The notes beneath the pieces are model-generated. The model did no database searches. It was not told the origin of the DNA and saw only the letters and a program-made list of their open reading frames with translations. The position numbers and the translations under genes are program-made. A stretch of DNA of 56,667 nt from an uncultured Planctomycetales bacterium (GTDB lineage Bacteria; 4484-113), in assembly GCA_964554185.1 (NCBI GenBank), contig CAZKNJ010000011.1, positions 1-56,667 of the forward strand, given 5' to 3'. Each line of letters begins with the position of its first letter. The stretch's first letter is position 1. Below, piece after piece: positions 19,298 to 34,861 of this stretch.

Positions 19298-19370
19298 TGC
19301 GCCCGGAGGGATTCGAACCCCCAACCGGCGGATCCGAAGTCCGCTGCTCTGTCCATTAAGCTACGGGCGC
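19298..19370 (-). tRNA. tRNA-Arg(UCG)
   Basis: Cloverleaf: acceptor GCGCCCG/CGGGCGC, anticodon arm GCGGA-CT-TCG-GA-TCCGC, T-loop GTTCGAAT; A20 and A73 Arg identity elements; CCA not encoded. Confidence 0.95.
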
Positions 19371-19380
19371 TGAGATATCG

Positions 19381-20403
19381 TCAGACCAAGCCCGGTTCAA
19401 CATCAAAGGCGGCTGGAGCACACCCGCGCATGCGCTTGAGCCACAGCAAGTATGCCATCATATCAGCGTTGTCCATTGCGAGCTTGGGCTCCGGGAAGCG
19501 CACCTCAAGCTGCGCGGCGATGCAGCATGATTGCAGGTGTTCACGGAACAGGCCGTTAATGGACACGCCACCGCTGACAGATAGGAGTTTTACGCCGGTC
19601 GTTTGAGCGGCCGCGAGCACCTTCGCGGCTATGGACTCCCAGACGCTGCGCAACAAGGACGCGGAGAACTCCCGTTGGAACTCAACGCCACCGCTTTCAT
19701 TGGCTGCGATCATCCTCACCGCCGCAGTCTTGAGGCCGGAGTAGCTGAAGTTCAAGTCCCCGCTATCCAGCATCGGAACCGGCAGCGACAAGACGGGCGA
19801 GACGGGTTTGTCGCCAAACTCGCGCGCCATCCGCTCCAGCACTGCACCCCCGGGGTAGCCCAAGCCCAGGCGCTGGGCGACCTTGTCAAACAACTCGCCA
19901 GCGGCGTCATCCAGCGTTTCACCCAGAACCTCCATCTCGCCAACCCCCCGGACCAGATAGAGGATGGTGTTGCCGCCGGAAACGACCAGCCCCAAGAAGG
20001 GGAAGGGGATGCGCTCAAGCGGACTACCGAAGAATGGCGAGTACAGGTGCCCTTCCAGATGGTTCAGCCCGTGGAGGTCAGCATTCAGCGCGGCTGACAG
20101 TCCACGGACGAAGGCAACGCCTGCCAGCAGGCAGCCGGGCAGCCCCGGCCCGCGGGTGACGCCGACTGCTTCCACTGCGCCCAGCGCATCCAGATGAGCC
20201 GAGCGAAGCTCCGAAAGCAACACCGGCAGGTTAGTCAAGTGCTCACGCGCCGCAATCTCCGGCACCACTCCGCCAAAGTCGGCGTGCAGTTCCACCGAAG
20301 AGGACAGCGCGGACCAGACCACTGAGCCATCCGGCTCCAGTAGCGCCAGGCCGGTGTCGTCAAAGGAGGTTTCGACCGCCAGCAGCGTCTTCTTCGCGCT
20401 CAC
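19381..20403 (-). CDS. tsaD: tRNA t6A synthesis protein TsaD
   Basis: ETS, GGVVPE, GPGL, NHLEGH, VSGG, DDAAGE and FSYSGLKT motifs. Confidence 0.95.
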   Translation of the reverse strand: MSAKKTLLAVETSFDDTGLALLEPDGSVVWSALSSSVELHADFGGVVPEIAAREHLTNLPVLLSELRSAHLDALGAVEAVGVTRGPGLPGCLLAGVAFVRGLSAALNADLHGLNHLEGHLYSPFFGSPLERIPFPFLGLVVSGGNTILYLVRGVGEMEVLGETLDDAAGELFDKVAQRLGLGYPGGAVLERMAREFGDKPVSPVLSLPVPMLDSGDLNFSYSGLKTAAVRMIAANESGGVEFQREFSASLLRSVWESIAAKVLAAAQTTGVKLLSVSGGVSINGLFREHLQSCCIAAQLEVRFPEPKLAMDNADMMAYLLWLKRMRGCAPAAFDVEPGLV

Positions 20404-20785
20404 CTTCTATCTCCTTTATGTCAAAGGCCGTGGCATCCGGATATGAAAGGCCGGAAGCACCGCAGACCGGGCACTCGTGCGGCAGCGGCTGCCCCGTGGG
20501 GTTGTGCCATATCTCCACGAAGCCCCCTTCCGGAAGGGGGATAGCGCCTGTGTGGCCGCAGGATGCGCAGTGAATCGACAGCGGCTCCAGCTCAAAATGC
20601 AGGCCAGGCCGCCCGATGCCGTGCGCATCGGCAACCTCCGCGAATAGGAACAGCAGGGTTTCCTGATGCACCCCTGCGAGCGGTCCGACCCTGAGCACGA
20701 TGCGGGTAACTTCAGCGAGCCCGTTAGCCTCGGCAGAGTCTCTGCATATCTCGGCTATGGAGCACGCCAGGCTGTACTCATGCAT
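20360..20785 (-). CDS. hypA: Hydrogenase nickel metallochaperone HypA
   Basis: MHE N-terminus; two CxxC (CASC, CPVC). Confidence 0.9.
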   Translation of the reverse strand: MHEYSLACSIAEICRDSAEANGLAEVTRIVLRVGPLAGVHQETLLFLFAEVADAHGIGRPGLHFELEPLSIHCASCGHTGAIPLPEGGFVEIWHNPTGQPLPHECPVCGASGLSYPDATAFDIKEIEGEREEDAAGGRNLL

Positions 20786-20788
20786 CGG

Positions 20789-21049
20789 CTACAGCCGCGG
20801 CAGCGGACGATGGTGCAGCTCAATGTCACTCTCGGCGTCAACCTCACCGAACTGAGTCCAGATACGGGCGTGGCCGCGCACCTTCATCACCGACACATGG
20901 TCGGTGAACTGGGCGATGAGAACTTCGCCCCGCTCGAGCTTCTCGGAGTGAAGGAACTTAGTCTCTTCACCGCGAGTAAGGCCAGCGACACTCACGCCGC
21001 TTTCCATCGCCTTGATAACAACATAGTCCTGCAAGAGGTCGAGATCCAT
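20789..21049 (-). CDS. mtrB: Trp RNA-binding attenuation protein (TRAP)
   Basis: VVIKA..GV.V.GLTRG..TKF.HSEKL..GEV.IAQFT.H.S..KVRG matches the TRAP family without gaps. Confidence 0.93.
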   Translation of the reverse strand: MDLDLLQDYVVIKAMESGVSVAGLTRGEETKFLHSEKLERGEVLIAQFTDHVSVMKVRGHARIWTQFGEVDAESDIELHHRPLPRL

Positions 21050-21100
21050 AGGGGGGTTATTCCTCCTCTAAACTAAGAAACAAAGAACAACAGGACGAGA

Positions 21101-21129
21101 ATGATACCACTTTATGGTAGGGCTTACAA
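21101..21129 (-). promoter_or_regulatory. Promoter of mtrB-hypA-tsaD(-tRNA-Arg)
   Basis: TTGTAA-N17-TATCAT with extended -10 TG. Confidence 0.6.
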
Positions 21130-25149: not shown

Positions 25150-26697
25150 CTAGAAAACCTCTTCTGCGATTGAGTAAATCTCCACCGGCCGGTCGCTCAG
25201 TTGGTAAACACCGCTGAAGTACTTGCTGGCTTCGCGGTAGAAGAGCTGCGCGGTAACAAAGACCGAGCCGGTTACGCCGGCCGCATTCATCTCGAAGTCC
25301 TCGGTAACCGTCTCGTTGGGGCCTATGCGGTTGTCCGCAAGGACCATGTCGGTCTCCCAGTAGGGCACTTCGTCGCGGAAGTCGAAGCTGCGGCCGATAC
25401 GCTTCTCATAAGTGCGCACGTCCTCAAAGAAGACGTTGCCGTCCGCATCTTCCGCACGCAGCACCAGCACCAGCTGGTGGAACGGAAGGCCGGTGGGAAG
25501 CATATGGCCCGCGCCCGAGTTGGTGATGTCAACGGTCGCAGTAATGAAGTCCTCGCTGCGCTCGGCATCCAGCGTGAGCTCCGCCGACATGCGGAGGAAC
25601 TCAGGCGTGGTGCCACGGAAGTCGTGAACATGGGCGTTGCGGCGGTCGGGACCGTGCTTGGAAGTCGGCTGGCGGCCCAAGCCGAGCTCTTGCGTGGTGG
25701 GCATATGGCAGTCCTGGCAGGTCTTGTAGTTCGCGCCAGGCACGGAGTACTTGCTGCGCAGCCACTCGTTGTAAGTATCCTGCACGATGACGCCGTAGCC
25801 GTTCACTTCCTGGTGGCAGGGCGCGCACATGCGGGAGTCAATGAAAACCGACGAGTACCTGATCGTATGCGCCGAAGTCGGGGCTTCATCAAGTGGACCG
25901 AATTTCTGGATGCCGAAGCGGTGCTCGTAGGCCAGGCCGTAGTAGTGGTTGTAGAGCTCGGGGAACTTGACCTGGTCACGGTCGGTTGGCAGGCCCATGC
26001 GGCTGATAGTGTGACAGAAGTCGCAGCTCACGCCATCCTTCACGTAGTCGTTCAAGCGCTGCCAGTAGTTCAGCTGCTTACGAATGGCGATATCCGAGTT
26101 GGGCCATGTATCCTTGCGAACACCCAGCGTGCGATCCACCTTGCCGGAGCCGACATCTACCAAGCGCGGGATGTAGCCTTCCCCCATGGCTTTGAGGAAC
26201 TCAACCAGCGGCTTGTTGCTGCTGTTGGCGATTTCCACATTGATGGCGGGCGCGTGGCAGGAGAGGCAGTCAATCTCCTCGGGCATTATGGCGCTGGCCG
26301 GAAGCTGGTCGTCGTTGCGCAATTCGCCCAGCCGGCGCATCTCCTTCACCTTCTTCTCCTGGTAGTCGTAGAACTCCCGGTATTCCGAGGAGGCCTGCTG
26401 GTAGAACATGCCACTGAAGGAACTGCCGTGGGCGGAGTACTGCCACTGCCGGTAGTAAGTGGCATGGCACAGCGAGCAGGACTCGGAGTAGTCTAGAATC
26501 GGCACGTACGGCACGTCTTGGGTCTCGATACCGTACTTGGCCATATTCTGCTCAAAGAGATCGATCCAAGGACGCTTCCATTCTTTCGGCCGCGCCTCTC
26601 CCCGCTCCTGAGCCAGAGCGCTCGCAGCAAACGCTACTAGGAGAGAAATCAGCAGGAGGACCGGAACGACCCCCCGTATGAATTTACTCCCTTTCAT
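25150..26697 (-). CDS. Exported multiheme c-type cytochrome (5 CxxCH) with C-terminal Ig-like domain
   Basis: CSLCH, CLSCH, CDFCH, CAPCH, CQDCH; GHMLPTG motif; Sec-type signal ending ASALAQ. Confidence 0.88.
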   Translation of the reverse strand: MKGSKFIRGVVPVLLLISLLVAFAASALAQERGEARPKEWKRPWIDLFEQNMAKYGIETQDVPYVPILDYSESCSLCHATYYRQWQYSAHGSSFSGMFYQQASSEYREFYDYQEKKVKEMRRLGELRNDDQLPASAIMPEEIDCLSCHAPAINVEIANSSNKPLVEFLKAMGEGYIPRLVDVGSGKVDRTLGVRKDTWPNSDIAIRKQLNYWQRLNDYVKDGVSCDFCHTISRMGLPTDRDQVKFPELYNHYYGLAYEHRFGIQKFGPLDEAPTSAHTIRYSSVFIDSRMCAPCHQEVNGYGVIVQDTYNEWLRSKYSVPGANYKTCQDCHMPTTQELGLGRQPTSKHGPDRRNAHVHDFRGTTPEFLRMSAELTLDAERSEDFITATVDITNSGAGHMLPTGLPFHQLVLVLRAEDADGNVFFEDVRTYEKRIGRSFDFRDEVPYWETDMVLADNRIGPNETVTEDFEMNAAGVTGSVFVTAQLFYREASKYFSGVYQLSDRPVEIYSIAEEVF

Positions 26698-26735
26698 CAG
26701 TCGCTCCAAAAGGTGGATTACACTTGAGTTGGGTC

Positions 26736-26822: not shown

Positions 26823-27410
26823 TTAGACAACATCCCTGCTGCCCTGCATCAGCCGGAAAACTTCTTGCCGGCTGGCGGGATTGTGGTGGAAGATACCTCG
26901 CAGCGCCGAGGTCGTTACAATCGTTCCGCGCTTCTTCACACCGCGTATCTCCATGCAAAGATGGCGCGCCTCCAGCACCACCGCCACGCCGTGGGGTTTC
27001 ATTGTCTCGTACAGCATGTCAGCCATCTGCCAGGTCAGCCTCTCCTGAATCTGCGGGCGGCGGCAGAGATGAGAGAAGGCGCGAACGATCTTGGAGATTC
27101 CGCATACGCGCCCCTTGGGGATGTAGCCGATATGCGCCTTGCCCATAAAGGGCATCAGGTGATGCTCACAGATGGAGTGGAACTCAATATCCCGCAGCAG
27201 CACCAGCTCCTGGTGTTCCTCCTGGTAGGTTGAACCTCGGATAAGTTCGTAGCTGTCTTCCTTTACGCCGCCCAGTAGGTCTTCGTACATCTGCGCCACG
27301 CGCTCGGGCGTTTTCGCCAGCCCTTCGCGCTCAGGATCTTCGCCGATCGCCAGCAGGATTTCCTTGACGGCGTGCTTAATGCGCTCAAGGTCAATGCGGC
27401 GGTTGCTCAC
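26823..27410 (-). CDS. folE: GTP cyclohydrolase I
   Basis: REGLAKTPERVA, SICEHHLMPF, RPQIQERLT and HLCMEIRGV motifs. Confidence 0.96.
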   Translation of the reverse strand: MSNRRIDLERIKHAVKEILLAIGEDPEREGLAKTPERVAQMYEDLLGGVKEDSYELIRGSTYQEEHQELVLLRDIEFHSICEHHLMPFMGKAHIGYIPKGRVCGISKIVRAFSHLCRRPQIQERLTWQMADMLYETMKPHGVAVVLEARHLCMEIRGVKKRGTIVTTSALRGIFHHNPASRQEVFRLMQGSRDVV

Positions 27411-33727: not shown

Positions 33728-34861
33728 TTGCAGGGAAAGGACCTCTACGAAGTGCTCGGGGTCAACCGGGACGCGACTGAAAAGGAAATAAAGGCGGCCT
33801 ACCGCCGGCTGGCTCGTAAACACCACCCTGACGTCAATCCCGGCAGCCCTGACGCCGAGCAAAGGTTCAAGGAACTCCAGGCGGCTTACAGCGTACTGGG
33901 CGATCCGGATAAGCGCAAGCAATACGACCGCCACGGAAATGAGTTCTTCTCGCCCCGCGGCCCGTCCAAAGGGCCCGGGGTTGAGTGGGAGGAATTCGTG
34001 CGCGGCTTTGGCCAGCGCGGCACGAGGGTTAACTTCGGCGGCATTGACTTCGATGTGTTCACTGATGTGTTTGACACCGGCGGCGCCAAACCGCCGCGCG
34101 CGGAGCGGCGCCCGATTCGCGGCCGAGACGTTTACCAGTCGGTGACCGTGGATTTTCTTGAGGCTGCCAGAGGTACCACCGTCACGCTGTCTCTTCAGCG
34201 CGAAGTCCACTGTGATCGTTGTGGTGGCAATGGCGCCGAGCCAGGGTCCGGCATGTCCACCTGCCCCTCTTGCAGCGGCTCTGGCGATGTAACGCGAGGC
34301 GCTTTCGTCTTCTCGCAGAAGGTCGCCTGCCCCCAGTGCAGCGGGAAGGGCCAAGTGGCCGACAAGACCTGCATGCGGTGCCGCGGCAGCGGGCGCATGC
34401 CCAAGCAGGAGAAGATAGAGGTGAGAATCCCTGCCGGCGTGGACACCGGCAGCAAGGTGAGAGTGCCTGGCAAGGGGCTACCAGGGACGAACAGCGGGCC
34501 CTACGGTGATTTGCTGCTGAACATCTCGGTTCGCCCCCACCCTTACTTCCGGCGCGAGGCCTCAAATGTGCACGTTGAGGTGCCGGTAACGGTGACGGAA
34601 GCGGTGCTGGGAGCTGAGATTGAGATACCAACGTTGGACAAACGCGTGAGAATGAAGATCCCTCCGGGCACCGATTCGGGCCAAGAGTTCCGGCTACGTG
34701 GCAAGGGCTTCCCGCATCTCTCGCACCACGGCAGCGGCGACCTGCTGGCGAGAATCGAGATCGTCACCCCTAGCAAGGTCGACGTTAAGGGGCGTGAGCT
34801 CATGCGCGAGTTCGCCAGCGAATACCCGCAGAATCCCCGACTGAAGATGTTCGGGTTCTAA
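33728..34861 (+). CDS. dnaJ: Chaperone DnaJ
   Basis: J-domain HPD; four CxxCxGxG zinc-finger repeats; TTG start. Confidence 0.95.

Follow-up and report, generated by a model that had tools for sequence, protein, structure and literature searches.

A divergent TRAP (MtrB) subfamily in a lineage of apparently diderm bacteria without detectable tryptophan biosynthesis genes

An open reading frame in the DNA analysed here encodes a genuine TRAP/MtrB homologue, and the interpretation that we prefer, and to which we give about an even chance, is that the protein belongs to a distinct TRAP subfamily, is functional and ring-forming, and would sense tryptophan and act on non-canonical targets in a tryptophan-auxotrophic diderm bacterium. 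The key result is a negative one, namely the absence of both the canonical triplet arrays and the trp genes, and the targets and the ligand are what we infer from the sequences. TRAP is the textbook model of ligand-gated RNA binding, ring symmetry, and cooperativity, and knowledge of it has come almost wholly from a small number of Bacillaceae in which it controls the synthesis of tryptophan; our literature searches gave no account of TRAP beyond Bacillota or of TRAP in auxotrophs. The novelty lies in a separate subfamily, with fixed changes at otherwise invariant positions, being combined with an auxotrophic host and absent cognate cis elements. Such a subfamily would give experimenters a direct means of asking what other things a TRAP ring is able to sense and bind, and it illustrates that naming any mtrB homologue "trp operon attenuation protein" can misstate its regulon.

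The window, by which we mean the whole stretch of 56,667 nucleotides that was analysed, is one contig of a 129-contig MAG of 2.18 Mb (62% GC, 93.7% complete). The features referred to below are the following.

20789 to 21049, minus strand: mtrB-like gene of the divergent TRAP subfamily, an intact ORF of 86 aa
21050 to 21100, minus strand: 5' leader, short and U-rich, with the Shine-Dalgarno sequence GGAGGA
21101 to 21129, minus strand: sigma-70-type promoter of mtrB-hypA-tsaD, TTGTAA-17-TATCAT with an extended −10 TG, overlapping the end of an upstream rfbB-like gene
20360 to 20785, minus strand: hypA (nickel metallochaperone, hydrogenase maturation), Pfam PF01155 E = 1e-19, starting 3 nt past the TRAP stop codon
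19381 to 20403, minus strand: tsaD (tRNA t6A37 synthesis), Pfam PF00814 E = 3.5e-65, as called overlapping the end of hypA
19298 to 19370, minus strand: tRNA-Arg (anticodon TCG), found by ARAGORN, Rfam tRNA 70.8 bits, 10 nt past tsaD
26823 to 27410, minus strand: folE (GTP cyclohydrolase I, the mtrA equivalent), Pfam PF01227 E = 1e-70

The original prediction of an intact TRAP at 20789-21049 was borne out by profile, structure-database, and fold comparisons. The ORF matched Pfam TrpBP (PF02081) with E = 1e-32 and 112.2 bits (cut-off 21.3) over profile positions 3-69 of 69. All solved TRAPs in the PDB matched at E = 5e-24 to 1e-21, the chains of 1WAP, 1C9S, and 3ZZL at E = 5e-24 to 1e-22 and with the same numbering as B. 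subtilis TRAP, and the identity to the solved proteins was about 62-65% over residues 7-73. The NCBIfam MtrB equivalog NF009724 gave 114.4 bits, marginally below its cut-off of 117, which is consistent with a separate TRAP subfamily. Structure prediction was carried out on the monomer only; the AlphaFold2 model, based on a 29-sequence alignment, had a mean pLDDT of 85.5, and when it was used as a Foldseek query the best 41 matches were all TRAP chains (1C9S, 1QAW, 1WAP, 3ZTE, 3ZZL), with a target-normalised TM of 0.89-0.93 and an rmsd of 1.1-1.3 Å over 66-68 residues. By this comparison, the model has the seven-stranded beta-sandwich subunit fold of the solved TRAPs. The GC content at the three codon positions of the gene (0.69/0.33/0.72) is similar to that of the adjacent genes, indicating a native composition.

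The genome had been described as apparently diderm and outside Bacillus, and its other features agree with that description: it encodes an Omp85/BamA-type protein, Spo0A is absent from it, and its RNase P RNA is of class A (RF00010, 182 bits). Class B RNase P RNA is typical of Bacilli and Clostridia. These observations support a diderm, non-Bacillus host, though placement in a split-off 'Bacillota_X' is possible. The class to which the host belongs is represented by 24 species in the genome collection, with no further genome at the same-phylum level.

A consensus scan of the region upstream of the TRAP gene gave 4 promoter sites against 0.6 expected, and the layout TTGTA(A/G) ... TGGTAT(C/T)(A/C)T is conserved ahead of the TRAP gene in four of the family's genera. 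The same promoter-mtrB-hypA-tsaD arrangement was present in 9/9 family genomes. No convincing terminator was found between the TRAP promoter and tRNA-Arg, and the coordinates listed above confirm the same-strand hypA-tsaD-tRNA-Arg context that had been noticed earlier. We propose that TRAP would head a housekeeping operon, mtrB-hypA-tsaD-tRNA-Arg, with transcription driven by its own conserved sigma-70 promoter. The folE gene, previously placed about 6 kb away, lies 5.8 kb from TRAP with seven genes between them, one of which is on the opposite strand, and the order folE - multihaem cytochrome c - folP - acyP - purE - deoB - (rfbB) - TRAP - hypA - tsaD is conserved in the family. A 519-aa protein encoded between folE and folP (25150-26709, minus strand) gave weak matches to multihaem cytochromes c (MtrC/MtrF-like, cytochrome c3, c554) and is 64-76% conserved in the family.

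We examined how widely this form of TRAP is distributed. A scan of 1.84 billion representative proteins yielded only 91 TRAP-like clusters, and the signature S22/L33/V52/V54/M55 was present in 2 of these, P0010 and P0011, both from metagenomes; the signature in the form S/A22-L33-V52-V54-M55 was also found in the TRAP of genome G020, which belongs to another family (f4) of the same class. A maximum-likelihood tree united the TRAPs of the window's family with those of G020, P0010, and P0011 in one clade (support 98/94), and this clade fell outside the group containing all named Bacillota, which argues that the gene is not a recent transfer from Bacillus. The phylogeny that had been suggested as a check on the original prediction thus assigns the protein to a separate, well-supported TRAP clade. 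TRAP was present in 9/9 genomes (five genera) of the window's family, and was found in 0/10 and 0/4 genomes, respectively, of the sister family and a third family of the same class. Within the window's family, comparison across four genera gave 76-96% identity for TRAP and 34-79% for its neighbours. The identities to the window copy were as follows.

TRAP: 76-96%
hypA: 34-61%
tsaD: 54-67%
rfbB: 61-65%
folP: 53-62%
folE: 73-79%

Metagenomes contributed 11 more near-identical TRAP copies of the family type, all of them intact, and no frameshift was seen in more than 20 copies, which were 76-98% identical across genera and metagenomes. As judged by this conservation, TRAP is under strong purifying selection.

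The residues of the protein were compared with those of 78 TRAPs from named Bacillota genomes, the window protein being taken together with its ten closest relatives. The residues that contact RNA (E36, K37, K56, R58, and F32) are kept, being invariant in 11/11 family sequences and in the wider variant clade. T25, T30, H34, Q47, T49, and S53 of B. subtilis TRAP are also kept, as is G27 of the set that contacts tryptophan (T30, T49, S53, T25, and Q47 likewise), and the key tryptophan-contact residues are invariant across the 11 family sequences and the wider variant clade. The retention of K37, K56, R58, T25, and T49 claimed from the sequence therefore held in the alignment numbered by the PDB chains and B. 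subtilis TRAP, and so did the substitutions H33→L and T52→V. Further changes relative to B. subtilis TRAP are I22→A, D39→E, A54→V, and I55→M, and the altered members of the tryptophan-contact set are T52, which is V, and D29, which is E. The third substitution that had been pointed out, T28→E, is real as a residue call (E28 is present), and only its significance was not upheld: the 78 Bacillota TRAPs have T, S, K, Q, L, or H at position 28, and a position that varies so freely is uninformative. The positions that distinguish the two groups are given below.

Position 22: I in 76/78 Bacillota TRAPs; A in the window protein and its ten closest relatives
Position 33: H in 78/78 Bacillota TRAPs; L in the window protein and its ten closest relatives
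Position 39: D in 78/78 Bacillota TRAPs; E in the window protein and its ten closest relatives
Position 52: T in 78/78 Bacillota TRAPs; V in the window protein and its ten closest relatives
Position 54: A in 78/78 Bacillota TRAPs; V in the window protein and its ten closest relatives
Position 55: mostly I in Bacillota TRAPs; M in the window protein and its ten closest relatives
Position 64: variable in Bacillota TRAPs; W in the window protein and its ten closest relatives

The changes are thus fixed at five invariant or near-invariant Bacillota positions (I22, H33, D39, T52, and A54), including the ligand contact T52 and H33, which lies on the path of site-to-site coupling. With T52 found in every one of the Bacillota TRAPs, the V at this position is not a common variant of canonical TRAPs. 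H33 contacts neither ligand nor RNA, and the H33A substitution still impairs regulation by B. subtilis TRAP in vivo (PMC1474065; PMC11725872). Given this effect and the five altered positions, the affinity for the ligand, the cooperativity, or the specificity may differ from those of Bacillota TRAPs. D39 contacts the first base, and affinity is not lowered by D39A (PMC1474065; PMC11725872). T30 and T49 are essential for TRAP activation (PMC1474065; PMC11725872), and the contact made by T52 has been reported to be of limited importance (PMC1474065). The tail is His/Pro-rich and 11 residues longer than that of B. subtilis TRAP (86 aa versus 75), in good agreement with the extension of about 10 aa noted before. 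The published determinants of the 12-mer ring are K15, D71, and T72 (PMC3184956). The protein studied here has M15, D71, and A72; the 12-mer signature K15/T72 is absent, and the determinants give no guide to ring size.

One could envisage that the remodelled pocket (I22→A/S, T52→V, A54→V, I55→M, H33→L) senses a molecule other than L-tryptophan, such as an indole derivative or another aromatic compound that makes no carboxylate contact, and that the protein regulates an unrelated pathway. T52 donates a hydrogen bond to the tryptophan carboxylate (PMC11725872; PMC1474065), and the residue is V in 13/13 variant-clade sequences and T in 78/78 Bacillota TRAPs; the combination of a small residue at 22 with a large one at 54 is likewise fixed across the clade, and the host has no tryptophan pathway to regulate (see below). 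We nevertheless consider a changed ligand unlikely, given that T30, T49, S53, T25, G27, and Q47 are all kept and that no candidate ligand pathway is linked to the TRAP gene. The changes at positions 22 and 54 could moreover be neutral: a small residue at 22 is always paired with V54 in the variant clade, and the pairing looks like a compensatory packing swap in the protein core.

The lack of trp genes, first remarked on for the window, extends to the whole genome. TrpA, TrpB, TrpC, and a TrpE-type chorismate-binding (TrpE/PabB) domain were not found in the 93.7%-complete assembly, and TrpA/TrpB/TrpC/chorismate-binding genes were detected in 14/14 control genomes. TrpA and IGPS were each found in 0/9 genomes of the window's family and in 0/1 of f4, and both were present in 7/10 genomes of the TRAP-less sister family; the family genomes are related and incomplete, so the pattern of absence is a consistent one and not a statistical test. 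The lineage has trpS, and its presence together with the absence of the biosynthetic genes means that tryptophan must be imported. The trpS copy of the window genome (G000:C82:5328-5804, minus strand) is cut by the contig end and lacks its 5' half and leader; the relatives have a complete trpS with a short, array-free leader. Salvage of indole acids was considered as a route and rejected: there is no true indolepyruvate oxidoreductase, the best match reaching 65 bits against a cut-off of 651, and no SNF-type transporter was found.

That f1, f3, and f4 of the class have lost the entire trp pathway could be taken to mean that TRAP arrived with a trp regulon since lost and is now a functionless, decaying relic. 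We regard this as very improbable indeed, since TRAP is the best-conserved gene of its neighbourhood (76-98% identity, with no frameshifts in more than 20 copies), its promoter is conserved, and the clade is old, including sequences of 53-55% identity that bear the same signature.

We searched for RNA sites of the canonical kind. In a control on the B. subtilis trp leader, the chain scanner recovered each of its 11 triplets. The window genome contained no run of six or more (G/U)AG triplets with 2-3-nt spacers, and when gaps or NAG were allowed only scattered, mostly coding matches appeared. Among 1280 upstream regions, the distribution of NAG chains equalled that of shuffled sequence. With four patterns, which between them account for all 5-triplet arrays with 2-3-nt spacers, counts were at background in 24/24 genomes of the class, including the ten that carry the TRAP variant, some of which are assembled in only 20-40 contigs. 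As a positive control, one of the four patterns matched 8/8 TRAP-bearing Bacillota genomes, mostly as the overlapping matches that mark long arrays. The leader scan proposed with the original prediction thus came out negative for the window genome and positive for every Bacillota control. The suggestion of possibly different targets also gains from these results, which describe a lineage without trp biosynthesis genes or canonical (G/U)AG arrays.

Individual candidates were followed up and discarded. The array in G004:C34 is intergenic, but the orthologous leader in the window genome has no triplets; that in G003:C2 is within a lipoprotein gene; and that in G020:C117 is flanked by a stop codon and by a terminator that convergent genes have in common. 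The candidate in G003:C9 (L146, about 68174-68218) is a hexanucleotide repeat, TAGTGM x8, which encodes a Ser-Ala/Asp repeat in grpE; this repeat mimics a TRAP site with 3-nt spacers, and is coding and not conserved. The trpS gene was rejected as a target because the leaders of five relatives lack an array. Alternative triplets at the canonical spacing were also rejected, as all 64 triplets and the two-fold degenerate ones gave only GC-rich coding repeats.

These searches bear on the possibility that the protein is an ordinary TRAP whose canonical array, for example before a tryptophan transporter, lies in unassembled or mis-assembled parts of the MAGs. In B. subtilis, the transport genes trpP and ycbK are likewise under TRAP control, which makes a target of this kind conceivable. 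All of the genomes compared are MAGs, fragmented and 62-94% complete, so that a single site in unassembled DNA is possible per genome, and trpS of the window genome is itself truncated. For the same array to have been missed throughout seems improbable to us, however, because ten independent variant-TRAP assemblies gave only background-level, non-conserved matches to the four 5-triplet patterns, the candidate arrays proved to be coding or not conserved, the upstream regions equalled the shuffled expectation, the trpS leaders of five relatives carried no array, and the control search was positive in 8/8 Bacillota genomes.

A second class of repeats was observed in the course of this work. Tandem heptanucleotide repeats of 4-7 units, each unit with a NAG (CAGCGGY/CAGTCGT, TAGTTSG, KAGGGAT, GAGTAGC), are strongly enriched intergenically in the window genome, with examples at C7:31554-31598 (minus strand), C21:20338-20418 (plus strand), C51:5553-5611 (minus strand), and C8:60103-60168 (plus strand) of G000. 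They are usually found just past a stop codon, with a purine tract and a GC hairpin behind them; the TRAP gene of the window has none nearby. They resemble the STRR repeats of cyanobacteria. The sister family without TRAP has them in far greater abundance (hundreds per genome), and they are absent from the TRAP-bearing G003 and G020, for which reasons they were rejected as TRAP- or HutP-type sites of period 7. Given that their distribution does not follow that of TRAP, we regard the repeats as unrelated to it. HutP itself (PF09021) was found in 0/24 genomes of the class. No stand-alone anti-TRAP was found in the searches, in which the Pfam Anti-TRAP profile matched only the Cys-rich domain of DnaJ; in the window the match is at 34262-34357 (plus strand) within the dnaJ gene (33728-34861), and the same is seen in most relatives, as expected from the homology.

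The leader of the TRAP gene itself contains UAG-UU-UAG-AG-GAG, three triplets at about 21061-21075 over the ribosome-binding site. Three triplets are reached by chance in about a quarter of all upstream regions, and the element is missing from the near-leaderless TRAP genes of f4, P0010, and P0011. Autoregulation through three triplets over the Shine-Dalgarno sequence was accordingly set aside as a finding, being at chance level and not conserved outside the family.

The genes next to TRAP were considered with respect to function. The hypA product has an MHE N-terminus and two CxxC pairs and is the sole HypA of the genome, which also encodes a [NiFe] hydrogenase large subunit on C34; against the NCBIfam HypA equivalogs it scored 52-57 bits, far under the cut-offs of 88-146. 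This HypA (20360-20785, minus strand) has a long insert between its CxxC pairs and is conserved far less than TRAP (34-61%). The gene adjoins TRAP in every family locus read (G003-G006, GMC4), with a spacing of 3-18 nt throughout the family, and is not adjacent to TRAP in f4, P0010, or P0011. On the P0010 contig Ga0315281_10160651 (L095, 903-1400), TRAP is followed by a tRNA gene (anticodon CAT) and then by tsaD, so that TRAP and tsaD are linked again here, at a TRAP identity of 54%. A Fur-family gene is found directly upstream of TRAP in f4 and P0011, at a distance of 47-61 nt and on the same strand (L092 in G020:C29, 3564-4055, minus strand; L097, 28-546, plus strand). A metal link is possible, with Fur upstream in the distant variants and a nickel/zinc chaperone gene, hypA, downstream in the window's family.

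Such neighbours raise the question of whether the ring might have a structural role or one independent of RNA, acting through protein partners (HypA, and elsewhere the Fur-family regulator) or as a tryptophan buffer. The invariant 3-18-nt coupling of TRAP to a single hypA in the family, the Fur-family gene upstream of TRAP in f4 and P0011, the His-rich C-terminal tails, and the failure to find an RNA site would all fit this idea, to which we assign a low probability. Without RNA it is difficult to see why E36, K37, K56, and R58 should be so strictly conserved, the separation of hypA from TRAP in f4, P0010, and P0011 speaks against a partnership, and the sole hypA of a genome with a [NiFe] hydrogenase is most simply read as part of a housekeeping operon. 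HypA as an anti-TRAP-like partner was rejected on the same grounds, as it is the only copy in the genome and the hydrogenase is present.

A Trp-sensing TRAP ring with non-canonical targets, the reading that we prefer, would work as follows. The host would be an uncultivated, anaerobic, diderm bacterium unable to make tryptophan, and its TRAP, with the essential residues kept, would still form a ring. Given that the residues that read the A and G of NAG (E36, K37, K56, R58, and F32) and the activating side chains T30 and T49 are retained (T25 and Q47 act through the backbone), the ring, once it has taken up tryptophan or an indole amino acid very close to it, most likely binds RNA. It would in this way signal how much of an essential amino acid, obtained by import, is available in the cell, and would act post-transcriptionally on a few mRNAs at NAG sites that are short, interrupted, or non-canonical in some other way. 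Genes for tryptophan uptake or economy are the candidate targets, to which the operon of TRAP itself may be added by way of the three triplets that cover the ribosome-binding site. Since the trp biosynthesis genes are absent, the output of TRAP cannot be their repression, and since no canonical run occurs in ten genomes with the subfamily, the RNA sites are not 5-11 (G/U)AG triplets with 2-3-nt spacers. We conclude that the targets must differ from those of the Bacillus textbook case, and that the ligand possibly differs as well. The genome searches yielded no cis element in support of RNA binding in vivo, which is suggested by the conserved contact residues. A broader proposal, possible in our view but doubtful, is that the clade represents a TRAP ring re-purposed outside tryptophan-pathway control, with a ligand other than L-tryptophan or an RNA architecture unlike (G/U)AG-N2-3, and serving as a housekeeping post-transcriptional regulator in tryptophan-auxotrophic diderms.

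Whichever of these is correct, the protein can be set beside the known systems. The 11-mer TRAPs of B. subtilis and Geobacillus stearothermophilus (1WAP, 1QAW, 1C9S) share its Pfam family and fold, and their RNA contacts (E36, K37, K56, R58, F32) and tryptophan contacts (T25, G27, T30, Q47, T49, S53) are identical in it; like them, it has a hydrophobic residue at position 15 and no T72. It differs from them in A22, L33, E39, V52, V54, M55, W64, and the 11-residue tail. Its gene is not part of a folE(mtrA)-mtrB operon, the trpEDCFBA genes and (G/U)AG arrays are missing from the host, and there is no stand-alone anti-TRAP gene; unlike the Bacillus and Geobacillus hosts, this host is diderm and its RNase P RNA is of class A. 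The 12-mer TRAP of Alkalihalobacillus halodurans (3ZZL, 9BDS) has the same core, ligand, and RNA residues, and a tandem construct of this protein gave the best phmmer scores; its 12-mer determinants K15, D71, and T72 (PMC3184956) correspond to M15, D71, and A72 in the window protein. The signature is shared by the variant TRAPs of G020 (f4), P0010, and P0011, which also have extended C-termini. They are only 53-55% identical to the window protein, however, carry D39 in place of E39, and have other neighbours (fur-TRAP, or TRAP-tRNA-tsaD), and their genes appear near-leaderless, the ATG following the −10 box by 9-12 nt. HutP, the antiterminator of the Bacillus hut operon that recognizes UAG-N4 repeats, resembles TRAP in being a ring protein that reads NAG triplets.
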